Assembly (NCBI RefSeq): GCF_051207375.1
Contig: NZ_JBPJZD010000003.1
Location: 525,612 to 557,611 of the forward strand
Direction of reading: 5' to 3'
Length of the DNA stretch: 32,000 bases
From: Haloarchaeobius sp. DYHT-AS-18
GTDB taxonomy: Archaea > Halobacteriota > Halobacteria > Halobacteriales > Natrialbaceae
The stretch's first letter is position 1; every line of letters begins with the position of its first letter. Positions 1 through 28,176 of the stretch are shown piece by piece. A model generated the notes under the pieces. The model was not told the origin of the DNA. It ran no database searches and worked only from the letters and a program-made list of their open reading frames with translations. A program made the position numbers and the translations under genes.

Positions 1-1740
1 CGCGACGGCGAGTACGACAAGTCCGCGAGCATCGAACTCGACTTCGAGCCCGACCTCGCGGTGGAGCGGACGGTCGACGGGGCCGACGCCGAGATTCCGG
101 TCCGCTCGGTCTGGCTGAACCTGCAGGACGAGTTATCCAACTACGACCCGCAGTACGTCTACAACGAGACGGGTGTCGGCGAAGACACGCACCAGCGCAT
201 CGCCCGCGAGTTCGCCGAGGCCGAGCGCGCGAAGATCATCCACGGGAAGGGCGTCAACGACTGGTACCACAACGACCTCGGGAACCGGGCGCTCCAGTTG
301 CTCGTCACCCTCACCGGCAACCTCGGTCGGCAGGGCACCGGCCTCGACCACTACGTCGGCCAGGAGAAGATCTGGACTATCCACGGCTGGAAGAAGCTCT
401 CGTTCCCGACCGGGAACGTCCGTGGCGTCCCGACGACGCTGTGGACGTACTACCACGCCGGCATCATGGAGAACACCGACGAGGACACCCGGGCGAAGAT
501 ACAGGAGTCACTGGATAAGGGCTGGATGCCGCTCTACCCCGAGAAGCGCGATGACGGGTCCAGACCCGACCCGACGACCATGTTCGTCTGGCGGGGGAAC
601 TACTTCAACCAGTCCAAGGGGAACGTCGCCGTCGAGGAGACGCTGTGGCCCAAACTCGACCTCGTCGTCGACATCAACTTCCGCATGGACTCGACCGCGA
701 TGAACGCGGACATCGTCCTCCCGACCGCGAGCCACTACGAGAAACACGACCTCTCGATGACGGACATGCACACCTACGTGCACCCGTTCACGCCGGCGGT
801 CGAACCCCTGGGCGAGTCCAAGACTGACTGGCAGATCTTCCGCGAGCTCGCCGCGAAGATTCAGGAGGTCGCCCGTGACCGCGGCATCGAACCCGTGCAG
901 GACCGGAAGTTCGACCGCGAGATCGACCTCACGACCATCTACGACGACTACGTTCGCGACTGGCTCGACGACGAGGAAGGTGCTCTCGAAGAGGACCGGG
1001 CGGCCTGCGAGTTCGTCCTCGAACACTCCGAGGAGTCCAATCCACACGACAGCGACGAACAGATAACCTTCGCCGACACGGTCGAACAGCCACAGCGGCT
1101 GAAGGCCGCCGGCGACCACTGGACCTCCGACATCGAGGAAGGCGAGGCCTACACGCCGTGGAAGCGCTTCGTGCAGGACAAGGAGCCGTGGCCGACGTTC
1201 ACCGGCCGCCAGCAGTACTACATCGACCACGACTGGTTCATCGAGCTTGGTGAGCAGCTGCCCACGCACAAGGGACCGGTCGCCGAGCAGGACCGCGAGG
1301 AGTACCCGCTGAAGTACAACACGCCCCACGGTCGGTGGTCCATCCACTCGACGTGGCGCGACTCCGAGAAGATGTTGCGCCTGCAGCGCGGCGAGCCGCT
1401 GGTCTACCTGCACCCCGAGGACATGGACGAACGCGGCATCGAGGACGGCGACACGGTCGTCGTCCACAACGACCTCGCCGAGGTCGAGGTCCAGGCGAAG
1501 GAGTACCCGAGCAGCCAGCGCGGCACCGCCCGGATGTACTTCGCCTGGGAGCAGTTCCAGTTCCCCGACCGGGACAACTTCAACTCGCTCGTGCCGATGT
1601 ACATGAAACCGACCCAGCTCGTCCAGTACCCCGAGGACTCGGGTGAACACCTCTACTTCTTCCCCAACTACTGGGGGCCGACCGGGGTGAACTCGGACGT
1701 CCGCGTCGACGTCCGGAAGAAGGGAGGTGATGACGGATGA
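1..1740 (+). CDS. narG: Respiratory nitrate reductase catalytic (molybdopterin) alpha subunit, C-terminal ~580 codons; 5' end outside window
   Basis: Frame 1 is open from base 1; the track start at 61 is an internal GTG. The sequence looks like the C-terminal part of a DMSO-reductase-family type II enzyme. It is followed by a 4Fe-4S beta subunit, an EbdC-like subunit and a TorD/NarJ chaperone. ATGA overlap with the next gene. Confidence 0.85.
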   Translation, partial: RDGEYDKSASIELDFEPDLAVERTVDGADAEIPVRSVWLNLQDELSNYDPQYVYNETGVGEDTHQRIAREFAEAERAKIIHGKGVNDWYHNDLGNRALQLLVTLTGNLGRQGTGLDHYVGQEKIWTIHGWKKLSFPTGNVRGVPTTLWTYYHAGIMENTDEDTRAKIQESLDKGWMPLYPEKRDDGSRPDPTTMFVWRGNYFNQSKGNVAVEETLWPKLDLVVDINFRMDSTAMNADIVLPTASHYEKHDLSMTDMHTYVHPFTPAVEPLGESKTDWQIFRELAAKIQEVARDRGIEPVQDRKFDREIDLTTIYDDYVRDWLDDEEGALEEDRAACEFVLEHSEESNPHDSDEQITFADTVEQPQRLKAAGDHWTSDIEEGEAYTPWKRFVQDKEPWPTFTGRQQYYIDHDWFIELGEQLPTHKGPVAEQDREEYPLKYNTPHGRWSIHSTWRDSEKMLRLQRGEPLVYLHPEDMDERGIEDGDTVVVHNDLAEVEVQAKEYPSSQRGTARMYFAWEQFQFPDRDNFNSLVPMYMKPTQLVQYPEDSGEHLYFFPNYWGPTGVNSDVRVDVRKKGGDDG

Positions 1741-2792
1741 GCAGCCAGTCCGACGACGGGGTGAACCTCGCCGACGGCGTCGACCACCAGGTCGCGATGG
1801 TGATGGACCTGAACAAGTGCATCGGCTGCCAGACCTGCACGGTCGCGTGCAAGTCGCTCTGGACCGAGGGCGGCGGCCGCGACTACATGTACTGGAACAA
1901 CGTCGAGACCCGCCCCGGCAAGGGCTACCCGAAGAACTGGGAGGAGAAAGGCGGCGGCTGGAAATCCAGCGAGCATAACGAGCGCAACCCCGGCGAGATT
2001 CCCGAACAGGAGGACTACGGCCACCACTGGGAGTTCAACCACGAGGCCATCATGTACGACGGGAGCGACGAGCCCCTTCGCCCCCAGGGCGACCCCGAGT
2101 GGGGGCCGAACTGGGACGAGGACCAGGGGGCCGGCGAGTACCCCAACTCGTACTACTTCTATCTCCCGCGTATCTGCAACCACTGCACGCACCCCTCCTG
2201 TGTCGAGGCCTGCCCGCGCAAGGCCATCTACAAGCGCGAGGAGGACGGCATCGTGCTGGTCGACCAGGAGCGCTGCCGGGGCTACCGCTACTGCGTGGAG
2301 GGCTGTCCGTACAAGAAGGTGTACTACAACGCGGTCAAGAAGACCTCCGAGAAGTGCATCTTCTGCTACCCGCGGCTCGAAGGCGAGGGGCCGAACGGGG
2401 AGACGTTCAAACCGGCCTGCGCAGAGGAGTGTCCGCCACAGCTCCGGCTCGTGGGGTTCCTCGACGACGAGGAGGGCCCCATCCACAAGCTGGTGAACGA
2501 GTACGAGGTCGCGCTGCCCCTGCACCCCGAGTACCAGACCGACCCGAACGTCTACTACATCCCGCCCTACGCGCCGCCACAGCACTCCGAGGACGGCGAG
2601 ACCGTCGACGTGGACCGCATCCCCAGAACCTACCTCGAGGAGCTGTTCGGCGAGCGAGTCCACGACGCGCTCGACACCATCGAACGCGAGCGCGACAAGG
2701 TGAACCGCGGCGGCGAGAGCGAACTCCTCTCGATGCTCACCGACGAGAATCCGGCCCAGAAGTACCGCATGGAGGTGTTCGACGATGACTGA
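1737..2792 (+). CDS. narH: Nitrate reductase beta (iron-sulfur) subunit
   Basis: 351 aa with several ferredoxin-type Cys clusters (CIGCQTCTVACK, CNHCTHPSCVEACP, CRGYRYCVEGCP, CIFC). ATGA overlap with narG. Confidence 0.9.
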   Translation: MSSQSDDGVNLADGVDHQVAMVMDLNKCIGCQTCTVACKSLWTEGGGRDYMYWNNVETRPGKGYPKNWEEKGGGWKSSEHNERNPGEIPEQEDYGHHWEFNHEAIMYDGSDEPLRPQGDPEWGPNWDEDQGAGEYPNSYYFYLPRICNHCTHPSCVEACPRKAIYKREEDGIVLVDQERCRGYRYCVEGCPYKKVYYNAVKKTSEKCIFCYPRLEGEGPNGETFKPACAEECPPQLRLVGFLDDEEGPIHKLVNEYEVALPLHPEYQTDPNVYYIPPYAPPQHSEDGETVDVDRIPRTYLEELFGERVHDALDTIERERDKVNRGGESELLSMLTDENPAQKYRMEVFDDD

Positions 2793-3639
2793 GCGAACGG
2801 AGACGGGGAGCGGGAGACGGGCCGACCGTGAGACCAGACAGACCATCGCGGTCACGCTGGCGCTGACGGCGCTGGTGGTCGCGTCGGCCCTGCTGGTGCC
2901 GATGCTCGCCAGTGCCCGCCCGGCCCACCAGATTCCCGTCCACGAGCCGGTGGGCGAGACGAGCGCCGCGAGCCCGGACGCGGCCGCCTGGGGTGACGCA
3001 CCCCCCGTCGAGGTCCCGATGACCAGCGCCCCGAGTGGCGTCCCAAACGCCGATACGACCTCGGTCGAGGAGGTCACCGTCCAGGCGATCCAGACGGATG
3101 AACGGTTCTACGTCCGCCTGTCGTGGGCCGACGGAACCGCAGACCGGAACGCGAGCAGCCCCCGGGAGTTCGCCGACGCGCTCGCGGTCCAGGTCCCGGT
3201 GAACCAGAGCGCCCGCCCGCCCATCTCCATGGGCAGCACGCGCAACCCGGTCAACGTCTGGTACTGGAGTTCGCCCAGCGGGGCAGAGGAGCTACTGGCC
3301 GGTGGTCCCGCCACGACCACCGAGTTCGAACAACCCGCGGTGAACGTCTCGACCAGCTACGAGGACGGCCACTGGCGGGTCGTGTTGGCCCGCGACCTGC
3401 AGGCCACCGGCCAGAACCGGACGGTCGTCCCGACGGACGAGGACATGGACGTCGCCTTCGCGGTCTGGAACGGCTCCGAGATGGAGCGCTCCGGCCGGAA
3501 ATCCGTCAGCGAGTGGTACCACTTCGCGCTGGGTCCAGGCCCGCAAGGCCCACCGTACGAGACGCTGCTGTGGTCGGTCGCTGGCGTCTCCATCGTCGGG
3601 GTGGCGGTCGCGACCGTGACGGCGATGCGACGAACCTGA
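2785..3639 (+). CDS. EbdC/DdhC/SerC-like haem-b subunit (ethylbenzene-dehydrogenase gamma-like domain) with N- and C-terminal hydrophobic segments
   Basis: 284 aa. The region ERFYVRLSWADGTADRN...ALAVQVP...MGSTRNPVNVWYWS resembles the EB_dh gamma-subunit fold of type II DMSO reductases. Hydrophobic segments lie at residues ~20-45 and ~255-280. 8-nt overlap with narH. Confidence 0.7.
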   Translation: MTERTETGSGRRADRETRQTIAVTLALTALVVASALLVPMLASARPAHQIPVHEPVGETSAASPDAAAWGDAPPVEVPMTSAPSGVPNADTTSVEEVTVQAIQTDERFYVRLSWADGTADRNASSPREFADALAVQVPVNQSARPPISMGSTRNPVNVWYWSSPSGAEELLAGGPATTTEFEQPAVNVSTSYEDGHWRVVLARDLQATGQNRTVVPTDEDMDVAFAVWNGSEMERSGRKSVSEWYHFALGPGPQGPPYETLLWSVAGVSIVGVAVATVTAMRRT

Positions 3640-3648
3640 GGTGAGCTG

Positions 3649-4422
3649 ATGCAAGAACAACCCGATACCACGCGAGACGACGAGGAATCGACCGCAGGGA
3701 CGACGAGTGACGAGCCACCGATGCCGGACCAGACGGACAGGGAGGCCGCGGCCCGCGGCGCACTGTACGGGCTGTGTGCGACCCTGTTCCGCGAACCGAG
3801 CGCGTCGGTCCACGAGCGACTGGCCAGTGGCGAGGTCACCGAGACCGGTGCCGAACTGGTCGCGGTCTCGGGACTGGATATCGACCCGCCGGACCTCGGG
3901 ACCGACGACGACCACGACACGCTCTGTGCCCGCTACAACGACCTGTTCACGGTCGGCTACGCGGAGTACGAGGACCGGACCGACGGGTCGCTCGATTCGC
4001 AGGGGCCGCCCGTGTCGCTGTACGAGTCACGCTATCGTTCGGAGGTGTCCTGGAACGACGTGAACCTGGACCTCGCCCGGGCCTACGAGTACTTCGGCGT
4101 CGAGGTGAACCAGGAGACGCGCGACAACCACGACTTCCTGCCCTACCTGCTGGAGTTCGCGGGCTACCTCGCCCGGCAGGAGGCAGTCGCAGCCGACGAC
4201 GAGGGTCGCGACCTCGCCAGGGCCCGCCTCGACTTCCTCGACCGACACCTCAGGGTGACGGTCCCGGGAGTCGCCGAATCGATGGCAGCGCAGTCCGGGA
4301 CCGGTCTCTACGGGGTGCTCGCCGACTTCTGTGACCGGCTCTCCCGGGCCGACCAGCAGGCGCTCGCCGCGCGCTTCGAGGGAACGCCCCCGGCTGAGGA
4401 CCAGCGAGGTGACGACCCGTGA
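3649..4422 (+). CDS. narJ: TorD/NarJ-family redox-enzyme maturation chaperone
   Basis: 257 aa. The ALYGLCATLFREPSASVHERL region is TorD-like. Sits after narGH. A GGTGA Shine-Dalgarno-like element lies 5 nt upstream of the ATG. Confidence 0.75.
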   Translation: MQEQPDTTRDDEESTAGTTSDEPPMPDQTDREAAARGALYGLCATLFREPSASVHERLASGEVTETGAELVAVSGLDIDPPDLGTDDDHDTLCARYNDLFTVGYAEYEDRTDGSLDSQGPPVSLYESRYRSEVSWNDVNLDLARAYEYFGVEVNQETRDNHDFLPYLLEFAGYLARQEAVAADDEGRDLARARLDFLDRHLRVTVPGVAESMAAQSGTGLYGVLADFCDRLSRADQQALAARFEGTPPAEDQRGDDP

Positions 4423-5327
4423 GCAGTTCGACGTTCGACCACTGGAGTACCCGGACGCGCGGCGCGGTCGCGACCGTGGTAGACGGCCTCCCCGTCACCA
4501 CCCGGACCGCAGCTGCACTGCTCGCGGTCGTCCCCGCGACCGCCGTGTTCGTCCTCAGGCTGGCGGTGAACGCCTCGCTCCAGGGGCCGGTAGTCGACGC
4601 CTCCCTGTTGCGGCCGGTGCTGTTCGCGGCGCTCCTTGGGCCCGCACTCGCGGCACTCGTCCTCGGCGCGAGTACGGCTTCGACCTCGCCTGCCGAGCGC
4701 GTCGGCCTGACGTTCGTCGGCGTATTCGGCGTCCTCGCCGGACTCTCCCCGGCGGCGTGGCTGCCGGCTGCGGGGGCGGTCCTCGGCGGTGGTTCGCTCG
4801 CCGTCGCGGCCCGGATCCACGAGGCGAACCGGCAGGTCACCCCGCTGGGACTCGTTTCGAGTACCGTCGTGCTGCTCGGTATTGCACTCTCACTGGCGGC
4901 CTCCTCGGGCGTCGCAACTACCCTCCGAACCACGGGCACGACCGTGGCACTGCTGGGAATCGCCCTGGCACCGGCGTTCGCCGGACGGAGCCTCTCGTGG
5001 CCGGACCTCGGTGCCGGCGCACTGGCCGCGGTGGCGGTGTACCAGGCCGCGACGAGTGCGCCCTTCGTCGCCGGAGCCGCGCTGCTCGTCGGGAGCAACG
5101 TCGTCGGCGGGTCCGTGGTGCTGGTCGCGCTGGCGGCCGGCGGCGGCGTCGCCGCGACCGTGGCAGGTGTGAGAACCGGGCGCTGGCCGGTCGCCCTGGG
5201 AGCCGTCCTGTTGCTTGTCTCGGGCGTCCCGGCGACGCTGCCCGGAGCAGTCGGGGCGGTGGTCGCGCTCGCACTGCTCGTCGCCGATGGCGGTGCCGGT
5301 ACCGAGACTCGAGGTGGTCTCGCGTGA
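4419..5327 (+). CDS. Polytopic Ala/Gly/Leu/Val-rich membrane protein, unknown function
   Basis: 302 aa with about 8 hydrophobic segments. GTG start overlaps the narJ stop (GTGA), and its own stop overlaps the next start (GTGA). Confidence 0.65.
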   Translation: MSSSTFDHWSTRTRGAVATVVDGLPVTTRTAAALLAVVPATAVFVLRLAVNASLQGPVVDASLLRPVLFAALLGPALAALVLGASTASTSPAERVGLTFVGVFGVLAGLSPAAWLPAAGAVLGGGSLAVAARIHEANRQVTPLGLVSSTVVLLGIALSLAASSGVATTLRTTGTTVALLGIALAPAFAGRSLSWPDLGAGALAAVAVYQAATSAPFVAGAALLVGSNVVGGSVVLVALAAGGGVAATVAGVRTGRWPVALGAVLLLVSGVPATLPGAVGAVVALALLVADGGAGTETRGGLA

Positions 5328-6160
5328 GAGACGAGGAGGAGGCCACCGACGGGCCGCCGGACCCGCAACTCCACCCCGAGAACAGTCCCGGCTTCGGCGA
5401 GGAACCGGTCGGGCTAGAGGATATCGAGGTCTCCCGCGAGGACGTGACCATCGGGGAGGCCGACCCGGCCGAACTCGCGGCCAGCGACACGGAACCCGTC
5501 GAGGACGCGGCCGAGCACGACCTGCTCGCCACCCTCGCGGGCGACGACCCCATCGAGCGCCGCCGAGCCGCGCTCGCGCTGGCCGAACGCGACCCGAGTG
5601 ACGCCGCAATCGAGGGGCTGGCGGCGGCCGCGGCCACCGACGACGAGCCCGAGGTCCGCCAGTTCGCGGTCGAGGCCCTCGGGAAACTCGGCGGTGACAT
5701 CGCCGCGCAGACGGCCCGCAAACTGCTGGAAGACCCCGAGCCGTGGGTGCGCGCGGAGGCACTGGTCTCGCTGGACCGGCTGGACCGTGAGAGCCACGAG
5801 GAGGCGATCGAAGGCGCACTGGACGACGAGCACCACGCAGTCCGCCGGAACGCCGCCATCTCACTGTTCAAACTCCGCGGCGAGGCCGCGAAGGACCTGC
5901 TGCTCGCCCAGACCGACGACGAGAGCGAGCGCGTTCGCGAGTGGGCAGCACACCTGCTCGCGGGCGTGGACGACGACGACGCCAGGGAGCGCCTCGCAGC
6001 ACTGGCGGATTCGGACGACAGCGACATCGTTTGCCGAACCGCGGCCAGGGCGTACGAGGCCGACCCCGGGGCGTTCCGCCGGCAGTTCAGCGGTGCGCTC
6101 GACGAGGTTGACACGACCCTCCCCGGCGAGGACCGCCTGAACCGCCGGCCCGACCTGTGA
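5324..6160 (+). CDS. HEAT-repeat (PBS-lyase-like) protein
   Basis: Repeated ~31-aa units of the form D(P/E)xxxVRxxAxxALgxl. I chose the GTG at 5324 because it overlaps the upstream stop. The track ORF from 4331 carries an Arg-rich out-of-context N-terminal extension. Confidence 0.75.
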   Translation: MRDEEEATDGPPDPQLHPENSPGFGEEPVGLEDIEVSREDVTIGEADPAELAASDTEPVEDAAEHDLLATLAGDDPIERRRAALALAERDPSDAAIEGLAAAAATDDEPEVRQFAVEALGKLGGDIAAQTARKLLEDPEPWVRAEALVSLDRLDRESHEEAIEGALDDEHHAVRRNAAISLFKLRGEAAKDLLLAQTDDESERVREWAAHLLAGVDDDDARERLAALADSDDSDIVCRTAARAYEADPGAFRRQFSGALDEVDTTLPGEDRLNRRPDL

Positions 6161-7467
6161 CCATGCACGAGACAGACAACCAGACGGACGAGGACGAGGA
6201 CGAGGGAGTGGACGAACAGCCAGACCTGCAAGCGCGCGTCGAAGCCGCACTCCGGCAGGTCCGCGACCCCGAGGCCGGCGTGAACGTGTTCGAGGCGGGC
6301 CTGGTCGAGAACCTCGTGGTCGACGGGGGGAGCGCGACCGTCGAGGCGGACCTCTCTGACTTCGACCCGGCCGGCGAGCAGCAGGTGGTCGGGGCGGTCC
6401 TGCAGGCGGTCCGATCCGTCCCCGGAATCGAGTCGGCCCACGTCGAACCGGTAGCTCCGACGCCGGATTCGGACGTGGACCGCGACAGCGGGACGGCCGC
6501 CTTCGACACCGTCATCGCGGTCGCCAGCGCGAAGGGCGGCGTCGGCAAGTCGACCGTCTCGACGATGCTGGCCTGCGCACTCGCCGGTGACCAGGCGGTC
6601 GGCCTGTTCGATGCGGACGTGCACGGGCCGAACGTCCCGACCCTGCTCGACATCGCGGGCCCCATCCACTCCGACGACGACGGGCACCCATTACCCGTCG
6701 AGGTGCCCGGGGAGGGCACCCTCGAAGCCATGAGCATCGGGTTGATGGAGCAGGGCGCACCACTCGGCTGGCGCGGCGCGATGGCACACGACGCCGTGAC
6801 GGAACTGTTCGAGGACACGGCCTGGTCGAACACGGACACGCTGGTGCTCGACCTCCCGCCGGGAACCGGCGACGTGGTGCTGACGACGCTGCAGGAGGTC
6901 CACGTCGACGGCGTGGTCGTCGTGACGACGCCGTTCCCGTCGGCGGTCGAGGACACCGCGAGGAGCGTCGAGCTGTTCCGGGACAACGACGTGCCGGTTC
7001 TCGGGACCGTCGTCAACATGGGCGGGTTCACCTGCCCGTCCTGTGGCGACACCCACGACCTCTTCCCGGACGGCTCGCCAATGGACGACCTCCAGACGAC
7101 GACGCTGGCGGAACTCCCGTTCGCCACCGAGTTGCAGGAGCCGCCGGTCCCGGGAGCCGTGCCCGAGGTGGTCGAGCCACTGGGTGACGCGGTCACCGAG
7201 GCCGCCCAGACCACCTGGGACGTCGGCGCGCCCGAGTCGGCGGTCGATATCCGCGGGCTCCCGCCACAGGACCGCAAGCAGGAAGTCCGCGAGGCGTTCG
7301 CTGACCTCGAGTCTGGCGACCCCTTCGTGGTCGTCAGCGACCGGGACCCCTCACCCATCCGGGCGTTCCTCGCCGAACTCGCCGGTGCGAAACCGTCGGC
7401 GTTCGACCCGTTCACCGTCAAGCGGGCCACCCCACACGACTGGCTCTTGCGGACGACCAGGCCATGA
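6157..7467 (+). CDS. apbC: Mrp/NBP35/ApbC-type Fe-S cluster carrier ATPase with N-terminal DUF59-like and C-terminal DUF2249-like domains
   Basis: Deviant Walker A (VASAKGGVGKST) and CPSCG Fe-S ligand motif. N-terminus LRQVRDPEAGVNVFEAGLV is DUF59-like. The C-terminal ~75 aa (VDIRGLPPQDRKQEVREAFADLESGDPFVVVSDRDPSPI) aligns with the standalone DUF2249 gene at 13909-14142. The start could instead be ATG 6163. Confidence 0.8.
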   Translation: MTMHETDNQTDEDEDEGVDEQPDLQARVEAALRQVRDPEAGVNVFEAGLVENLVVDGGSATVEADLSDFDPAGEQQVVGAVLQAVRSVPGIESAHVEPVAPTPDSDVDRDSGTAAFDTVIAVASAKGGVGKSTVSTMLACALAGDQAVGLFDADVHGPNVPTLLDIAGPIHSDDDGHPLPVEVPGEGTLEAMSIGLMEQGAPLGWRGAMAHDAVTELFEDTAWSNTDTLVLDLPPGTGDVVLTTLQEVHVDGVVVVTTPFPSAVEDTARSVELFRDNDVPVLGTVVNMGGFTCPSCGDTHDLFPDGSPMDDLQTTTLAELPFATELQEPPVPGAVPEVVEPLGDAVTEAAQTTWDVGAPESAVDIRGLPPQDRKQEVREAFADLESGDPFVVVSDRDPSPIRAFLAELAGAKPSAFDPFTVKRATPHDWLLRTTRP

Positions 7468-8156
7468 CGGGCGACCGGGAGACGTCGGTGCTGCCAGCTT
7501 CTTCCCTCACGGGCGTCGTCCTCGCGGGTGGGACCAGCACGCGGTTCGGACCGACTCCGAAAGCGACGGCGACGCTCGACGGACGGCCCCTGGTGGACCG
7601 GGTCGTCCGCCGGCTCTGGCGGGCGACCGGGCGACCGCCGGTGGTCGCGGCTCGCAGTGCAGCGAAACGCGAGCTGGTCACCGAGGCCGTCTCCGAACCG
7701 GTCCGGTTCACCCCCGATGCGGACTGGTGTGGCGGCCCGGTTGCCGGTCTCGCCGGGTCGCTGGATGCGGTCGAGACCGACCGCGTGTTCGTCTGTGGCT
7801 GTGATATGCCCCTGCTCTCGCCCGCGGCGGTTTCCTGGCAGGCGGCCCGGTTGCAGACGACCGAAGCGAACGCGGTGGTTCCCATGGACGTCGAGGGGCA
7901 GCCACAGCTCCTCCACGGGGTATTCGACCGTGACGCGCTCGCGTCGCTGTTCGAGACGCGCCCCGACGACGACCGGCTCCGGGTCGTGCTCGACCGGCTG
8001 ACCGTCGACCGGGTTCCACAGCACGAGGCACCCCAGAACATCCCCCTCGCCCGGTCGACGGTGAACGTCAACACCCGGGGCGACCTACGTTCGATACCGA
8101 CGATGGAAGCCGCGGTCGGTCACGGCCCCGACCCGGGCGAACACGTTCGGAACTAA
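7464..8156 (+). CDS. mobA: Molybdenum cofactor guanylyltransferase
   Basis: 230 aa. N-terminal GVVLAGGTSTRFG nucleotidyl-transferase motif and a GCDMP motif. ATGA overlap with the mrp gene. Confidence 0.8.
   Translation: MTGDRETSVLPASSLTGVVLAGGTSTRFGPTPKATATLDGRPLVDRVVRRLWRATGRPPVVAARSAAKRELVTEAVSEPVRFTPDADWCGGPVAGLAGSLDAVETDRVFVCGCDMPLLSPAAVSWQAARLQTTEANAVVPMDVEGQPQLLHGVFDRDALASLFETRPDDDRLRVVLDRLTVDRVPQHEAPQNIPLARSTVNVNTRGDLRSIPTMEAAVGHGPDPGEHVRN
8138..8149. promoter_or_regulatory. Palindromic operator CGAACACGTTCG (site 1)
   Basis: Lies inside the last codons of mobA. Centre is 44.5 nt upstream of ATG 8188. The 16-mer GGCGAACACGTTCGGA is identical to site 8. Confidence 0.7.
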
Positions 8157-8187: not shown

Positions 8188-9507
8188 ATGCGACCAGCCG
8201 TGACCGACCTCGACACGGGACAGGGCCCCCCGACGGCCATCCCGCTGCGCCACTTCCTCGTCGCCCTCGCCTTCCTCGCGGCCGGGATGGGCCTGTGGGT
8301 GATTCGACTGTACCCGACACCGCAGCGGGTAGCCCCGCCGCCCGCGGTGGTACACGCGGTCGTCGTGGGCTGGATCTGTCTCACCATCATGGGCGCGATG
8401 ACGCAGTTCGTCCCGGTGTGGTCGGGAGTGCGACTCCACTCGACCCGGCTGGCCAGACTCCAGTTGCCACTCGTCGCCGGCGGGGTCGTCGGAATCGTGG
8501 CCGGGTTCTGGTCGATGACGCTCTGGCTGGTGCCCGCGGGTGGGCTCCTCGCCGGTCTCGGCCTCTGGCTGTTCACCTACAACATCTGGCGGACGCTCCC
8601 GCCCCGTGGCGACCGCGACGTGACGGAGACCCACTTCGCGGTTGCACTCGCCTTCCTCTCGGCGGTCCCGGCGGTGGGACTCGCACTCGGTGCGGGATTC
8701 CTCGACCCGGCCGTACTCGACTCGCTCCCTCCCAGGGACAGGCTCGTGTCGGCACACGCCACCATGGCGGTGTTCGGGGTCATCCTGCCGACGGTGTTCG
8801 GGGCGCTCTACCAGCTCGCGGTGATGTTCGCCGGGACGAGCCTCGACGAGCGTGACCAACGATTCCAGCGCGTGGAGACGGCGGTGTACCCACTGGGTGT
8901 CGGCGTGCTCGCGGCAGGTCGGCTGCTGGATTCGTCGCCGGTCGCCCGCCTCGGCGGTGCCCTCGTCCTCGTGGGTGTGGCCGCCTTCACCGTCGTGTTA
9001 GGTCGAGTGCTCCGTCGCCGGACCGTCGAGACCACGCCGACGCTGGCCCGGTACGGGGTCGTCGCCGTCGCCCTCGCGTGCTGGGTGGTCCTGACGGTCC
9101 CAGCGTGGGTGGGCGGCGACCCGACGGCGGCGACGGCCCGGTACGGCGGCACTGGTGGGGTCGCCCTCCTGCTGTTCGGCGGGGTCGCCGTCGTGGTCGT
9201 CGGGAGCCTCTATCACGTGATTCCGTTCCTCGTCTGGCTGGAGCGCTACAGCGACCTGCTCGGCTACGAGCCGGTGCCGATGGTCGAGGACCTGTTCGAC
9301 CACCGGCTGGCGAGAGCCGACTTCTGGCTGGTGGTGGCCGGGACCGGACTGGTCGCCGGAGCCGACCTGCGCTGGGTCCCTGGAACGGTCTTCACCGGTG
9401 GGGTCGTGTTGCTGCTGACTGGCTTCCTGCTCGTGGCGGCCAACATGGGACTCGTCGTGCACCGGGATGCGGGCCAGCCCGACCGGGGCGCTGTTGACGC
9501 GGACTGA
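8188..9507 (+). CDS. 12-TM integral membrane protein with conserved His in several helices (tentatively NnrS-like)
   Basis: 439 aa with about 12 hydrophobic helices. Motifs: VHAVVVGWICLTIMGAMTQFVPVWSG, AHATMAVFGVILPTVFGALYQ, GSLYHVIPF. The operator sits at -44.5. Confidence 0.7.
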   Translation: MRPAVTDLDTGQGPPTAIPLRHFLVALAFLAAGMGLWVIRLYPTPQRVAPPPAVVHAVVVGWICLTIMGAMTQFVPVWSGVRLHSTRLARLQLPLVAGGVVGIVAGFWSMTLWLVPAGGLLAGLGLWLFTYNIWRTLPPRGDRDVTETHFAVALAFLSAVPAVGLALGAGFLDPAVLDSLPPRDRLVSAHATMAVFGVILPTVFGALYQLAVMFAGTSLDERDQRFQRVETAVYPLGVGVLAAGRLLDSSPVARLGGALVLVGVAAFTVVLGRVLRRRTVETTPTLARYGVVAVALACWVVLTVPAWVGGDPTAATARYGGTGGVALLLFGGVAVVVVGSLYHVIPFLVWLERYSDLLGYEPVPMVEDLFDHRLARADFWLVVAGTGLVAGADLRWVPGTVFTGGVVLLLTGFLLVAANMGLVVHRDAGQPDRGAVDAD

Positions 9508-9984: not shown

Positions 9985-11172
9985 CTAGCGGTTCGCGCGC
10001 TCTCGAAAGAGACCCCCGAGGAGCCAGACGTGAGCCACGGCCCCGGCGAGTGCGCTGACACCGCCGAGGAGTTCGAAGACGGGGACGTCGAACGCGAGGC
10101 CGGTCACTCCCAGCACGAGCCCCACCAGCAGACAGGCGATCGCGCCGAGCGCCGTCCGGTCCCCAGCGCCCGGGAAGGTCCCGACCGCAGGCGGGTAGAA
10201 CTGGTAGCTCACGCCGACGATGGTCAGCCCGAGGAAGCCGACGAGATTCAGGCGGGCATGTGCGAGCCCGAGGCCGGGCTGGAGACCACCCAGCGCGAAC
10301 TGCAGGCCGAGGCCGACCCCGAGGCAGCCACACACTGCGCCCGCGAGCACGCCGTAGAACCCGACCCGACGGCGTTCGGACCGGTAGGAGAGCACCCCGA
10401 GCACGATGGCGAAGGCGACGACGGCCGAGGCTTCGAGGACGGCCCCGAGCCGGAACCACTGCCCGCTCGGGAGGTACGTGGCGATGAGCAACGGCCCACC
10501 TGCCGCGGCCGGAAAGACGAGCACAGGCGCGAACCGCGGCGGGGTGGCGACGAAGAAGCGCGGCAGCAATCGGAATCCCACGGCGAACACGAACAGTGCG
10601 CCGGTACCCGCCGCGAGCAGGTGGCTGGACCGGGCGAGGCTCCCATCGAACACCACCGGGAGACCGGTTTCGGCCGCGAGCACACCGTAAGACCCGAGCA
10701 GGAGATACACGAGAGCGACCGGGACGAACGCGTTCGCCACCCTGTCGAGTGCCTGCCGGTGCGTGTTCACGGCACCGGTCCCGGTCGCCGCACCGGAGAG
10801 GTCACCGCGGACCGTCCACAGCAGCGACCCGGCGAAGACGAGGACGCCGAGCGACCAGCAGAGCGCGCCGACTGTCCCGACCCACGCCGGGGAAGCCCGC
10901 AGTCCGTCGAGTGCAAGCAGGGCTGTCCCCCCGACCGAAAGCGGAAACTGGACGAATGGGGCGCGCGCCACGGCGAGTTCGCGGTCGAAGTACACCGGAA
11001 TCAGCGAGTAGCCCTTCCCGAACACGGTGTGCAGGACGAACCCGAACAGGACGAGGACGACCTCGACGCGTCTCGGGGTGCCGATAAGCGCGGCGAGTGC
11101 CCAGACGAGGAGGAAGAGCGCGCCGGTGAACACGAACCGGCGGGCCCACCTCGAGACCGTGGCGGTCGTCAT
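9985..11172 (-). CDS. 12-TM integral membrane protein related to the 8188-9507 product
   Basis: 395 aa starting MTTATVSRW (ATG at 11172). The upstream part of the 680-aa track ORF is Arg/Pro-rich and looks like an artefact. It shares AHA-x5-G-x4-T-x2-G-x2-YQ at identical spacing with the 8188 protein. Confidence 0.7.
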   Translation of the reverse strand: MTTATVSRWARRFVFTGALFLLVWALAALIGTPRRVEVVLVLFGFVLHTVFGKGYSLIPVYFDRELAVARAPFVQFPLSVGGTALLALDGLRASPAWVGTVGALCWSLGVLVFAGSLLWTVRGDLSGAATGTGAVNTHRQALDRVANAFVPVALVYLLLGSYGVLAAETGLPVVFDGSLARSSHLLAAGTGALFVFAVGFRLLPRFFVATPPRFAPVLVFPAAAGGPLLIATYLPSGQWFRLGAVLEASAVVAFAIVLGVLSYRSERRRVGFYGVLAGAVCGCLGVGLGLQFALGGLQPGLGLAHARLNLVGFLGLTIVGVSYQFYPPAVGTFPGAGDRTALGAIACLLVGLVLGVTGLAFDVPVFELLGGVSALAGAVAHVWLLGGLFRERANR

Positions 11173-11177
11173 CGCGC

Positions 11178-11759
11178 TCAGTACGGTGCCTGCGGGCCGG
11201 GCCCGGGCGGGACGTCGGAGCCGGTGGGTTCGAGGGCGTCGAGTTCGTCCGGGTGCGGAATCTGGCCGGTCTCGCGGAACTCGGTCTCCAGGACCGAGAG
11301 CACGTCGTTCGCGGTTGCACTCGCCTGGTGGGACGGAGCGATTCTGACCCGCACGAGGTCGTAGTCGTGTCGGTCGGAGAGCCCGTTCAGGGCCCGGAAC
11401 ACGGCCGTCACGAGGGTCTGCCCCTGCGGGCAGAACTCGGTCGTCGGGGTGAACTCGACGCGGAGGACGCCCTCCTCGTCCGACGACTCGGCGTACCGGA
11501 ATCCTGCATCGGGGTGTCGACTGTCCCGGTTGAGGCGCGCGAGGTTGTACCCGAAGGTCACGTCGTAGACGCCGCGTTCCTCGAAACACTCCCTGGCCAC
11601 CGAATGGACCCTGACGTGCGCATCGCCGGTCAGCACCTCGTGGCCGGCGAGGAACGGTCCCGGGTCGGGGAGGTGTTCGAGGACGAAGGCGTCCTGGGGG
11701 TCGAACGGCTCCTCCGTGCCATCGTCGTCGCTGCCAGAGAACGGTGATGGGAACTGCAT
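11178..11759 (-). CDS. Acidic hypothetical protein with a DUF59/MIP18-like T-x-T-x-x-x-C-P motif
   Basis: 193 aa from ATG 11759 (MQFPSPF). The track start at 11807 lies inside the palindromic operator. The motif VEFTPTTEFCPQGQTLVTAVFRAL resembles DUF59. Only 5 nt separate it from the downstream membrane gene. Confidence 0.6.
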   Translation of the reverse strand: MQFPSPFSGSDDDGTEEPFDPQDAFVLEHLPDPGPFLAGHEVLTGDAHVRVHSVARECFEERGVYDVTFGYNLARLNRDSRHPDAGFRYAESSDEEGVLRVEFTPTTEFCPQGQTLVTAVFRALNGLSDRHDYDLVRVRIAPSHQASATANDVLSVLETEFRETGQIPHPDELDALEPTGSDVPPGPGPQAPY

Positions 11760-11797
11760 CTCGTCCGTGCCTACGGACGCCTGCGTGGTATGGTTGC

Positions 11798-11815
11798 GCA
11801 CGAACATGTTCGTGC
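11798..11815. promoter_or_regulatory. Perfect 18-bp palindrome GCACGAACATGTTCGTGC (operator site 2)
   Basis: Lies between the rSAM stop (11856) and ATG 11759. Centre is 47.5 nt upstream of that ATG. Confidence 0.7.
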
Positions 11816-13398: not shown

Positions 13399-13677
13399 AT
13401 GGCGGCGAAGACAGATCCACCGACGCTGTCCGCGTTCCTGGAACGGAGCAACGCGCCGACCGACGGCAGCCTGGACCGGCTCGACGTGGCGGACCTACCG
13501 CCACCACAGCCGCTCACGAAGACGCTCGAGCACCTCGCAGACCTCGACGGCGGCGTGCTGGTCCAGTTCAACGACCGAGCGCCCAAACACCTCTATCCGA
13601 AGCTGAACGAGCGGGGCTTCCGATACGAGACAGAGGAGATCGCCGGGCGCATCGTGACCCTCATCTGGCGGGGGTGA
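13399..13677 (+). CDS. DUF2249-like small protein (subtype 2)
   Basis: 92 aa from ATG 13399 (MAAKTDPP). LDVADLPPPQPLTKTLEHLADLDGGVLVQFNDRAPKHLYPKLNERGF. Confidence 0.65.
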   Translation: MAAKTDPPTLSAFLERSNAPTDGSLDRLDVADLPPPQPLTKTLEHLADLDGGVLVQFNDRAPKHLYPKLNERGFRYETEEIAGRIVTLIWRG

Positions 13678-13908: not shown

Positions 13909-14142
13909 TCACTGCTTGGGCAGCGTCGCGATGAACTCGGTGTCGCTCACCTGGTCGAGTTCGTAGCCCTCGGCGTCGAAGTCGTCGCGCTCGGCCTGTA
14001 GCTGGTAGTACAGCGGCTGGGGGTCGTGGTCGTTGACCAGCGTCAACGCCTCTCCCGAGTCGAGCGCGTCGAACGCCTCGAATATCTTCTCGTGGCGGTT
14101 CCGCGGTGCGTACTCACGTGCGTCGATGGTCGTCTCGGTCAC
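13909..14142 (-). CDS. DUF2249-like small protein (subtype 1)
   Basis: 77 aa from GTG 14142, the only in-frame start before the domain. IDAREYAPRNRHEKIFEAFDALDSGEALTLVNDHDPQPLYYQL. The rest of the 317-aa track ORF is antisense to the regulator gene. Confidence 0.65.
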   Translation of the reverse strand: MTETTIDAREYAPRNRHEKIFEAFDALDSGEALTLVNDHDPQPLYYQLQAERDDFDAEGYELDQVSDTEFIATLPKQ

Positions 14143-26577: not shown

Positions 26578-28176
26578 ATGGGCCAAGACGACGCTTCCCG
26601 GCAGGCGGAACGGTTGCGGGACGCGGCCATGGACGACCCGACAGACCCGATGGGGCTGGCGGACGACCTCGCCGCGCTCGCCGCACACGACCAGCCTGCT
26701 GTCCGTCGTCTCGCGGTCGAAGGACTGTGCGAACTCGCGGAGACCAGTATCGACCCCGTCGAACCGGTACTCGACGTGGTGTTCGACGCGCTGGACGACC
26801 CCGATTCGGAGACGGTTCGAGAGGCCGTGAACGTGGTCGCAATCGTCAGCGACGAAGACCCGTCGCTGGTCCAGCCGGTCGCCTCCGACCTCTGTCGACT
26901 CCTCGAGGAGGACCGCAGGGGGACCAGCGAGGCCGCCGCCGTCGCACTGTGGCCGATCGCCTGGACGACGCCCGGAGAGGTCGTCGAGGCGGTCGACCCG
27001 CTCCGCCGGCTCCTCACCCGACCGGAGCAGGCCACTCGCCTGAGTGCGGTCGCGGTGCTCCGTGGAATCGCCTCGGAGCACCCGGAGGTCTGCGTCCGAG
27101 CGACCGAGGACCTCATCGAGCGGTGTTTCGACCGCCGGCAGAACGTCCGCGTCATGGCGACCGCCGCGCTCGGCCCGCTCGCGACGGTGTTCCCGGGACG
27201 CATCCAGCCAGCCGTCCCCCGACTGGTCCGCTGTCTCGATGACGGCGACGGCCGGGTCCGCCAGAACGTCGCCGCGGTCGTCCAGCAGATCGTCAAGGCG
27301 TACCCGGAGGTCTCGCTGGACCACCACGCCGCGTTCGTCTCACTGCTCGACGACGAGAACGAAGAGACCCGCACGAGCGCCTCGAACGTCCTCACGACGG
27401 TCGCCGACTACCGGCCGGGTGTCCTGAGCGACCATCTCGAGACGCTGGTTCGTGCCACCGGCGATGAGGATACACGCGTCGCCGCGAACCTCTACCTGGG
27501 ACTGGCGACCATCGGCTGGACACAACCTGAGGAACTGGTAGACCACCTCGACCCGCTCGCCGACGGGTTGACGCGAACCGAGGGCGTGAGTCACAACGCC
27601 GCCTACCTGCTCGGCGTGCTCGCCGAGACCTACCCGGTGGTCGTGGCGGACTACCTCGACGCCCTGTTCGAACAGCTCACCGGCGGTGTCGACCGGGTGA
27701 GCCGGAACGCGGCCTGGGCGGTCGCGGTCATCGCAGAGGACCAGCCAGCCGCAGTCGAGCGGTACCGCCACCTGCTGGTGCAGGCCCTGGACGATGACTA
27801 CGTCGCCGTCAGGGGGAACGCCGGCATCGCCCTCGGCCTGCTCGGAAATCCACCCGAGACCGCCGTCGAGGCCGTCCTCGACATGCTCGCCGACGGGGGC
27901 GACCCCCACGACGTTCGCCTGGCGAGTAGTGCTCTCGTCGCGCTGACCGACGCGAGCACGCAGGTCTCGGTCGGCGACCTGCCGGTCGAAGCCGTCCTCG
28001 ACCTGCTCTCGGCCGACAACCCACAGGTCAGGGCGAACGCGTGTATCGCGCTCGGAAACCTCGGCGTCCAGACCGCCCTCGACGACCTCTACGAGTGCCA
28101 GACCGACACCGAACCGGAGGTCAGGGACGCTGCAAAGTCCGCCGTGGAACAGGTCCACGGCCGGCGGGCGGATTGA
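26578..28176 (+). CDS. Large HEAT/armadillo-repeat protein
   Basis: 532 aa with a dozen or more repeats of the type D(E/D)xxxVRxxAxxAL. Confidence 0.75.
   Translation: MGQDDASRQAERLRDAAMDDPTDPMGLADDLAALAAHDQPAVRRLAVEGLCELAETSIDPVEPVLDVVFDALDDPDSETVREAVNVVAIVSDEDPSLVQPVASDLCRLLEEDRRGTSEAAAVALWPIAWTTPGEVVEAVDPLRRLLTRPEQATRLSAVAVLRGIASEHPEVCVRATEDLIERCFDRRQNVRVMATAALGPLATVFPGRIQPAVPRLVRCLDDGDGRVRQNVAAVVQQIVKAYPEVSLDHHAAFVSLLDDENEETRTSASNVLTTVADYRPGVLSDHLETLVRATGDEDTRVAANLYLGLATIGWTQPEELVDHLDPLADGLTRTEGVSHNAAYLLGVLAETYPVVVADYLDALFEQLTGGVDRVSRNAAWAVAVIAEDQPAAVERYRHLLVQALDDDYVAVRGNAGIALGLLGNPPETAVEAVLDMLADGGDPHDVRLASSALVALTDASTQVSVGDLPVEAVLDLLSADNPQVRANACIALGNLGVQTALDDLYECQTDTEPEVRDAAKSAVEQVHGRRAD

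Follow-up and report, generated by a model that had tools for sequence, protein, structure and literature searches.

A DUF59-Mrp/ApbC-DUF2249 fusion encoded in a haloarchaeal nar operon: a candidate client-dedicated Fe-S-cluster carrier

The proteins that most resemble the one discussed here come from quite different settings. HCF101, with the layout DUF59-ParA-DUF971, is a chloroplast/mitochondrial [4Fe-4S] scaffold (PMC7980591). In Thermus thermophilus, the DUF2249 proteins DrpA and DrpB are encoded downstream of nar; a drpAB double mutant makes the nitrate-reductase subunits while the enzyme is nearly inactive, and nar expression needs both proteins in order to depend on nitrate (PMC6282519). 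In Haloferax mediterranei, a fusion of the kind described below and its location in the nar operon have already been published, together with its induction under denitrification (log2FC 3.6), the authors preferring a sensor role for DUF2249 proteins (PMC11218638); sensing is the published view of this family (PMC11218638, PMC6282519). The fusion itself is not new: it is already annotated and was mentioned in that 2024 paper. What we add is that the fusions form one clade restricted to haloarchaea, that they are syntenic with narG, that a sister clade belongs to a second operon, that the DUF2249 domain has a TusA-like fold without the cysteine, that the Nar-linked copies have lost its two histidines, and that DUF2249 is distributed more widely than nar. 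A literature search for Mrp together with mobA and narJ in haloarchaea returned nothing relevant.

The window analysed here is a stretch of 32,000 nucleotides from Haloarchaeobius sp. DYHT-AS-18, at the beginning of which the fusion gene lies in the following series:

1 to 1740, plus strand: narG, truncated by the window edge to its 3' part (TIGR03479, 739 bits; 82% identical to H. mediterranei NarG)
1737 to 2792, plus strand: narH, Fe-S subunit (88% identical to the H. mediterranei nar locus)
2785 to 3639, plus strand: EB_dh-type heme-b gamma subunit
3649 to 4422, plus strand: narJ chaperone
4419 to 5327, plus strand: DUF8068-like gene, 302 aa (42% identity to the DUF8068 gene that H. mediterranei has in the same position)
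5324 to 6160, plus strand: HEAT-repeat protein, 278 aa, always immediately upstream of the fusion
6157 to 7467, plus strand: DUF59-Mrp/ApbC-DUF2249 fusion gene (open frame of 436 aa from GTG 6157)
7464 to 8156, plus strand: mobA, molybdenum cofactor guanylyltransferase

The locus is a haloarchaeal periplasmic nitrate reductase (pNar) operon: it encodes the alpha and beta subunits of a type II DMSO reductase, the EB_dh heme-b subunit and NarJ, and it is highly identical to nar of H. mediterranei. The first-pass annotation was right to place the fusion inside it, narG, narH, EB_dh and narJ being upstream and mobA downstream. A 609-aa ORF (4331-6160), considered as a single “HEAT” gene, was rejected in favour of two genes, 4419-5327 and about 5324-6160, the first of which gave no match in the Pfam scan. 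The fusion gene overlaps each of its neighbours by 4 nt, the HEAT stop at its start and the mobA start at its end, which indicates that it is co-translated with the maturation genes. Among named relatives, a Haloarchaeobius protein comes nearest to that of the window, at 82%. The orthologue in H. mediterranei (E6P09_17415) is 62% identical, has the same three Pfam domains and occupies the same place after narJ-DUF8068-HEAT; it differs in belonging to another genus, in being followed by a small Oxidored_molyb protein and in that mobA appears fragmented there.

The recorded protein starts at ATG 6163 and has 434 aa. Its domains and motifs are as follows:

6232 to 6444, plus strand: DUF59 / FeS_assembly_P, N-terminal domain, residues 26-96 (Pfam PF01883)
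6508 to 7140, plus strand: Mrp/NBP35-type P-loop NTPase core, residues 118-328 (Pfam PF10609, ParA/NUBPL Mrp-type)
6532 to 6552, plus strand: deviant Walker A, KGGVGKS (K126-S132), signature lysine present (read in the sequence; invariant in 55 fusion proteins)
7033 to 7044, plus strand: CPSC (C293, C296), the cluster-bridging CxxC motif (read in the sequence; invariant in 55 fusion proteins)
7243 to 7461, plus strand: DUF2249, C-terminal domain, residues 363-435 (Pfam PF10006)

All three domains exceed their Pfam cut-offs: DUF59 with 42.1 bits (cut-off 23.5, E 1e-10), the core with 209.8 bits (cut-off 27.1, E 5.5e-62) and the C-terminal DUF2249, for which a Pfam check had been called for, with 49.8 bits (cut-off 29.5, E 3.1e-13). 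The three-domain architecture read from the letters is thereby borne out, and the extension placed at about 7234-7464 is close to the domain, which starts at about nt 7243. As to the two motifs reported for the core, CPSCG is present (C293, C296); the supposed GKGGVGKS actually reads S-A-KGGVGKS. In the alignment of 55 fusions, K126 and K131 of Walker A, the DxD switch, Walker B and both C293 and C296 are invariant. Residues 26-96 contain no Cys, so the conserved cysteine of SufT/CIA2-type DUF59 proteins is missing. The AF2 model of the full-length protein (pLDDT 87.8, pTM 0.74) found ApbC 8zkc as its best PDB fold match (E 6e-23), with Cfd1 6g2g and AF2382 also among the matches. The fusion thus shares with ApbC/Mrp, Nbp35/Cfd1 and Ind1 (NUBPL) the PF10609 core, the deviant Walker A, the CxxC and the fold; unlike the ApbC/Mrp carriers, it has an extra DUF2249, lies on a long separate branch and stays under the NCBIfam ApbC equivalog cut-off (NF008669, 164 bits against 348). 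The best NCBIfam match, MrpORP (NF041136), likewise falls short of its equivalog cut-off (189 bits against 450). By these scores, the protein is a diverged paralogue and no ApbC or MrpORP equivalog.

We favour, with moderate confidence, the reading that the fusion, a paralogue that has diverged from the housekeeping Mrp/ApbC ATPase, is an Fe-S-cluster carrier dedicated to particular clients, the NarGH-type enzymes exported by Tat, much as HCF101 or Ind1 is to its own. It would form an ATP-dependent dimer, hold a [4Fe-4S] cluster on two CxxC motifs and hand this over, in the cytoplasm and before Tat export, to type II Mo-bisPGD enzymes, whose NarG/NarH-type subunits are rich in Fe-S; its partners in assembly would be NarJ, MobA and the DUF8068 and HEAT-repeat proteins encoded next to it. 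HCF101 is similarly built, with an N-terminal DUF59, an Mrp/NBP35 core with CxxC and an additional C-terminal domain, and it too is a client-directed paralogue beside a general carrier, the clients of the fusion being predicted ones. However, the C-terminus of HCF101 is a DUF971, often with CxCxxC, and that of the fusion is a TusA-like DUF2249 without Cys (the Pfam scan found no DUF971 in it); the predicted clients of the fusion are Tat-exported molybdoenzymes, and the fusion is confined to Halobacteria. The analogy is, thus, one of layout only.

One has to ask whether the core handles another cofactor altogether, that is, a Mo-containing or other metal centre in the manner of MrpORP or of ATPase-type HypB, or whether the protein only escorts the apo-enzyme as a Tat-proofreading helper. 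MrpORP as best NCBIfam match (189 bits), ATPase-type HypB among the fold matches (TM about 0.8 on target) and mobA as the next gene speak for it; but the MrpORP score is far under the cut-off of 450, the top fold matches are ApbC and Cfd1, and CxxC plus DUF59 is typical of Fe-S carriers. Of all the readings weighed here, we hold this one the least probable, and by itself very improbable.

A survey of 401 Halobacteria genomes gives this picture: plain housekeeping Mrp is found in 401/401, the fusion in about 98, of which 82 are NarG-positive. The fusion is therefore not ubiquitous, ubiquity among non-denitrifying haloarchaea being what the first-pass annotation had named as evidence against itself. 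NarG was found in 89/401 genomes; in 77 of these 89, narG and the fusion share a contig, with the fusion 4.2-6.0 kb downstream, and in five more it is on another contig or distant on the same one, which could be due to contig breaks or circular-replicon wrap-around. The remaining seven (genus g46 and G004) have retained narJ-DUF8068-HEAT but have no fusion; it is therefore dispensable in some lineages. In the tree, all fusions form one clade with a long stem (SH-aLRT 100), apart from housekeeping Mrp; the clade is of single origin and restricted to haloarchaea. In a search for the fusion outside Halobacteria, among 1.84 billion representatives, about 17 clusters carried a complete or shortened tail, the named ones being haloarchaeal and all of them showing halophile composition (pI 4.0-4.6), and the longer multi-stretch matches lower in the search were without DUF2249.

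A second, uncharacterised enzyme of the type II DMSO-reductase family, probably no nitrate reductase, is found in 35 genomes; in at least 29 of them its operon ends with a fusion of a sister clade, here too preceded by a HEAT protein. These fusions also occur in NarG-less genomes, and exclusive tracking of nar by the fusion was rejected on that ground. The genome from which the window comes has the second operon as well, but with no separate fusion belonging to it, so that the fusion is not obligatory. Matters of observation are the domain architecture, the intact catalytic motifs, the single origin of the clade and its tight synteny with type II operons of two kinds; all functional statements on the fusion rest on this context. 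The proposal that DUF2249 is linked to Fe-S delivery for a denitrification enzyme survives in part: the narJ/HEAT/mobA surroundings and the Thermus drpAB phenotype fit a role in cofactor assembly, but the sister clade at the second operon shows that the link is not specific to denitrification.

The role of the tail was the harder question. Two free DUF2249 genes lie elsewhere in the window:

13399 to 13677, plus strand: free DUF2249 gene b, 92 aa (43 bits)
13909 to 14142, minus strand: free DUF2249 gene a, 77 aa, keeping the RH...DHDP histidines (DUF2249 84.8 bits)

In the window, qNor, the free DUF2249 genes and the denitrification operator lie near the fusion. The alignment of the fusion tail with the gene at 13909-14142, noticed early on, holds at 38% identity over 42 aa (E 8e-11), with the strand of that gene corrected to minus. 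The model of the fusion's DUF2249 (pLDDT 96) predicts a two-layer beta-alpha-beta-alpha-beta-beta, TusA-like fold, with TM of 0.6-0.7 to TusA/SirA/YeeD sulfur carriers (3lvj chain C, TM 0.63/0.66; YeeD 8k1r, TMq 0.69); 3hz7, 2lxr, 1jdq and 1dcj also match, and no match of the fold search was at E <= 1e-3. DUF2249 and TusA have an LDxxG...DxxP register in common, but opposite the catalytic Cys of the TusA CPxP the fusion has Pro and the free copy Ala, and when the DUF2249 alignment was compared by profile with the two TusA proteins of this genome, the match lacked significance (hhalign probability 7.5%) and is no proof of homology. The fusion domain does not reach the Pfam TusA model (PF01206), free copy b being the only one to match it, under the cut-off (E 8e-4); a PDB sequence search with a free DUF2249 protein gave chance-level matches only. 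Without the cysteine, the tail can therefore run no persulfide sulfur relay, and sulfur transfer in the manner of TusA was rejected.

We infer that the tail is a docking or ligand-binding regulatory module. Across the 55 fusions, D364, R366, R373, G387, D395, D397, P398, P426 and W429 are invariant, and the charged ones (D364, R366, R373, D395, D397) would lie in the pocket that matches the active site of TusA. The canonical His positions of DUF2249 (RH...DHDP) are K374 and R396 in the fusion (RK...DRDP): both histidines are missing from the Nar-linked fusions and kept in the copies linked to the second enzyme.

By the published sensor view, the tail would bind a nitrogen oxyanion, NO or O2, the main role of the protein being to couple this signal to nar expression or maturation and not bulk cluster carriage. 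This is what has been proposed for Thermus DrpA/DrpB, without which nar expression loses its nitrate dependence (PMC6282519), and what the H. mediterranei authors prefer (PMC11218638); invariant Arg and Asp are conspicuous in a protein that is otherwise very acidic and Lys-poor, and K/R in the Nar-linked copies versus His in those of the second enzyme could mean different ligands. Like the fusion, DrpA and DrpB have a DUF2249 encoded beside a respiratory nitrate reductase, and their mutants point to both nar control and enzyme maturation; they differ in having no ATPase, DrpA being periplasmic and DrpB consisting of DUF1858 and two DUF2249, and the conserved histidines of DrpA are missing from the fusion domain. 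However, DUF2249 has no known ligand, the fusion lacks a DNA-binding or signalling output domain, the same fusion also goes with the second enzyme, probably no nitrate reductase, and the conservation of all Mrp catalytic motifs argues for a working carrier. We consider a sensor-gated factor unlikely on balance.

Dedicated cluster delivery during assembly, our preferred reading, must also be set against repair. The first-pass annotation had suggested such a role under NO stress. The fusion and the free DUF2249 proteins might restore Fe-S or other metal centres that become nitrosylated or oxidised in the course of denitrification, as RIC/YtfE does. The closeness of qNor, the free genes and the operator would suit this, as would an association of DUF2249 with hemerythrin, reported in papers cited by PMC11218638. 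But the fixed partners of the fusion are assembly genes (narJ, HEAT, mobA) rather than nirK or nor, in NarG-less genomes it also lies behind the operon of a non-nar enzyme, and the Pfam scan found no hemerythrin or di-iron domain in it. Moreover, DUF2249 occurs in 290/401 Halobacteria genomes, far more widely than nar: many of these are without NarG and some without detectable qNor, and some DUF2249 genes are not near nor. Having the free proteins act in the same process is, for this distribution, a weak step, and nothing was found that favours repair over assembly; we regard it as very unlikely.

A bolder version of the carrier reading can be drawn by analogy with CIA delivery, with its NBP35/Cfd1 scaffold, DUF59 CIA2 and HEAT MMS19. 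The HEAT protein and the fusion would form an archaeal, client-dedicated counterpart, in which the Cys-less DUF2249 might act as an oxyanion- or metal-binding switch releasing Fe-S insertion into the Tat-exported molybdoenzyme only when substrate or cofactor is present. We give this a small chance; if true, it would provide the first molecular function for DUF2249 and would explain the difference in ligand residues between Nar-linked and second-enzyme-linked copies. Beyond the 290 genomes, thousands of other proteins contain DUF2249, a domain that has no known function; that it is covalently joined to a recognisable Fe-S carrier, and this in a fixed place among genes for molybdoenzyme maturation, is the clearest functional clue to it. 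The locus also bears on how large Tat-exported respiratory enzymes are supplied with Fe-S clusters, and it suggests that haloarchaea evolved a dedicated carrier and a HEAT-repeat partner for that purpose. Haloferax mediterranei, being open to genetic work, would allow the question to be tested directly.

The fusion gene is real and had been read correctly in the first-pass annotation. Translation of 6157-7467 (+) gives a 436-aa open frame from a GTG at 6157; the protein on record (P0003) is identical but starts two codons on, at the ATG at 6163, and counts 434 aa. Pfam confirmed the three domains proposed, including DUF2249 at the C-terminus, all above the curated cut-offs:

residues 26-96, DUF59/FeS_assembly_P, 42.1 bits
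residues 118-328, Mrp/NUBPL-type ParA NTPase, 209.8 bits
residues 363-435, DUF2249, 49.8 bits against a cut-off of 29.5, E 3.1e-13

As to the two motifs reported with them, CPSCG is present (C293, C296), but the Walker A reads AKGGVGKS and not GKGGVGKS. The fusion is a variant within a known kind of protein, and its H. mediterranei orthologue P0019 (62-63% identity, with the same Pfam set and neighbours) is already in print (PMC11218638). What is new, modestly, is that the fusion goes, across its family, with two kinds of type II molybdoenzyme operon and a HEAT-repeat partner, that its DUF2249 domain has a predicted TusA-like, cysteine-less fold, and that the Nar-linked copies have lost a histidine pair.

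The fusion is preceded, in order, by the 3' part of narG, narH, an EB_dh heme-b subunit gene, narJ, a 302-aa gene and a 278-aa HEAT-repeat gene, and followed by mobA. Identity with the Haloferax mediterranei nar locus is 82% for the part of NarG and 88% for NarH, and the 302-aa gene shares 42% identity with the DUF8068 gene found there in the corresponding position. A single 609-aa ORF at 4331-6160 was rejected as a high-G+C artefact, the true genes being 4419-5327 (DUF8068-like) and ~5324-6160 (HEAT repeats). The published denitrification operator CGAAYATDKTYG has ten sites in the window (19 strand matches vs 0.84 expected by chance), and the ten sites of the palindrome CGAACATGTTCG, a motif published for denitrification promoters of H. 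mediterranei, at 575, 945, 8138, 11801, 13324, 13349, 14181, 14224, 14259 and 14962, precede a 439-aa membrane gene, orf209, both free DUF2249 genes, an HTH_10 regulator and qNor. Because the HEAT stop and the fusion start, then the fusion stop and the mobA start, overlap by 4 nt, and none of the ten operator sites lies before the fusion, the latter looks like a part of the nar transcript. Other genes of the window deserve a mention:

8188-9507 (+), multi-pass membrane protein without a family match
~9985-10911 (-), multi-pass membrane protein without a family match
11178-11807 (-), 209-aa ORF with a DUF59-like T-P-T-x-x-x-C-P motif (TPTTEFCP)
26578-28176 (+), larger second HEAT-repeat protein (532 aa), its position unrelated to the nar cluster

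Both membrane proteins are conserved next to the fusion/mobA module in several genera (loci L004, L005, L011, L013). The 209-aa ORF had zero matches in Pfam/NCBIfam; homologues about 50% identical to it adjoin the second-enzyme fusion described below in L004 and L005, and it may be a further Fe-S assembly helper.

Plain Mrp is found in 401/401 Halobacteria genomes and a fusion-type gene in about 98 of them. The best 120 homologues (57-82% identity) all have the three domains, every named source being a haloarchaeon. Among 1.84 billion representatives searched, about 17 clusters at 50% identity have a DUF2249 tail or a tail cut short, and below them scores fall to plain Mrp proteins; DUF2249 was found by Pfam in 10 of the 11 representative clusters scanned, two clusters are named (Halorussus and Halorubellus), and all have an acidic, lysine-poor, halophile-like composition. 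In our tree, all fusion-type proteins form one clade (SH-aLRT 100, stem of 1.36 substitutions per site), and the genome's housekeeping Mrp falls outside it together with its relatives.

Tracking with nar held in part. NarG was matched (E <= 1e-150) in 89 of the 401 genomes, 77 of which carry the fusion downstream of narG on the same contig, at a distance of 4.2-6.0 kb (median 4.5 kb); in another five it is on a different contig or lies far off on that of narG, perhaps because a contig ends in between or the replicon is circular. Seven have NarG without fusion, and the three such loci that we looked at (L021 and L023 of genus g46, L022 of genome G004) each end in narJ-DUF8068-HEAT; the g46 loci also have an AhbD-like radical-SAM gene and a free DUF2249 gene 0.5-2 kb downstream. 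Conversely, 16 genomes have a fusion-type gene without a NarG match. In four of these, the fusion is the leftover of a decayed nar cluster, with narG broken into three out-of-order pieces (L010, G361) or HEAT or fusion genes truncated (L007, G345; L008, G296; L011, G198). Decay also takes the form of deleted nar genes, with the fusion (at times truncated) and mobA or HEAT fragments left.

The other NarG-less fusion genomes, and second copies in several NarG-positive ones, have a sister-clade fusion (44-52% identical) closing a different operon of the type II DMSO-reductase family, whose products are an alpha subunit with a Tat signal (23% identity to NarG), beta and heme-b gamma subunits, a chaperone, and two further proteins, one with HEAT repeats and one of 212 aa. 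This second enzyme occurs in 35/401 genomes of several haloarchaeal families (alpha 76-95% identical; also at L001-L006, L009, L012, L019), at least 29 of the 35 having a fusion-type gene within ~8 kb. In the genome of the window itself, this operon lies on a separate contig and has no fusion gene (G000:C2:695599-703200, L017); the one fusion of this genome may thus act for both enzymes. On this evidence, what stays constant beside the fusion is a NarGH-like, Fe-S-rich molybdoenzyme with its chaperone and a HEAT-repeat protein, and not denitrification as such, to which the fusion had been linked at first.

The most economical explanation, towards which we lean, is that the fusion is a client-dedicated Fe-S carrier, comparable to HCF101 (DUF59-ParA-DUF971; PMC7980591) and Ind1, which would load clusters into NarG/NarH-type subunits ahead of Tat export. 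That it would carry some other cofactor seems to us very improbable. Repair under NO stress, also put forward in the first-pass annotation, gained no specific support from our data, and we consider an NO-damage repair factor improbable.

The authors of the H. mediterranei study take Thermus DrpA/DrpB as their model and incline to see DUF2249 proteins as sensors (PMC11218638), which would make the fusion a sensor-gated factor, a reading that we find rather unlikely. In the Thermus drpAB double mutant, nitrate-reductase subunits are at wild-type levels and activity is low (PMC6282519), a phenotype that, by analogy, hints at agreement with the carrier function. A sequence search of solved structures returned no match for DUF2249. 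AlphaFold2 with a 55-sequence alignment modelled the full-length fusion at pLDDT 87.8 and pTM 0.74 (tail pLDDT 91-98), with matches to ApbC (8zkc, E 6e-23), Cfd1 and AF2382. The DUF2249-only model (pLDDT 96.1, beta-alpha-beta-alpha-beta-beta) had no structural match at E <= 1e-3, and over the whole domain it came closest to the TusA family: TusA 3lvj_C (TM 0.63/0.66), YeeD 8k1r (TMq 0.69, rmsd 2.3), 3hz7, 2lxr, 1jdq and 1dcj. Free copy b (13399-13677) reaches Pfam TusA at E 8e-4, below the cut-off. In an alignment with the two TusA proteins that this genome encodes, the fusion has Pro where TusA has its CPxP cysteine, and the free copy has Ala; sulfur relay by the tail is ruled out by the lack of this cysteine. 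DUF2249 is thus predicted to fold like TusA, though it lacks the persulfide cysteine, and as profile-profile comparison with TusA was not significant, we do not claim homology as proven. Residues D364, R366, R373, G387, D395, D397, P398, P426 and W429 are invariant across fusions. The canonical histidines (RH...DHDP) are retained in free copy a (13909-14142) and most second-enzyme-linked copies, whereas Nar-linked copies have K or R at both positions. The role that we favour for the tail is docking or the binding of a ligand.

The 4.35-Mb genome has only three DUF2249 matches, the fusion and two free copies:

13399-13677 (+), free copy b, 43 bits
13909-14142 (-), free copy a, 84.8 bits

The alignment first noticed between the tail and copy a was reproduced by BLASTP (38% identity over 42 residues, E 8e-11), the gene lying on the minus strand. 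The step from the fusion to free proteins acting in the same process is weak: DUF2249 occurs in 290/401 genomes, well above the NarG or fusion counts, and the free genes of five NarG-less genomes are beside qNor in one and far from it in two, with qNor undetected in two. The fusion helps to suggest what DUF2249 is capable of, but is no demonstration that the free proteins act in Nar assembly. Many haloarchaea also have proteins of ~370-400 aa with two or three tandem DUF2249 domains per frame (e.g., G030:C48:83340-84065 and G109:C1:2833732-2834460). P0135, a 647-aa fusion from metagenomic data, carries DUF2249 at the N-terminus; two matches to the domain suggest another copy at the opposite end of the protein.
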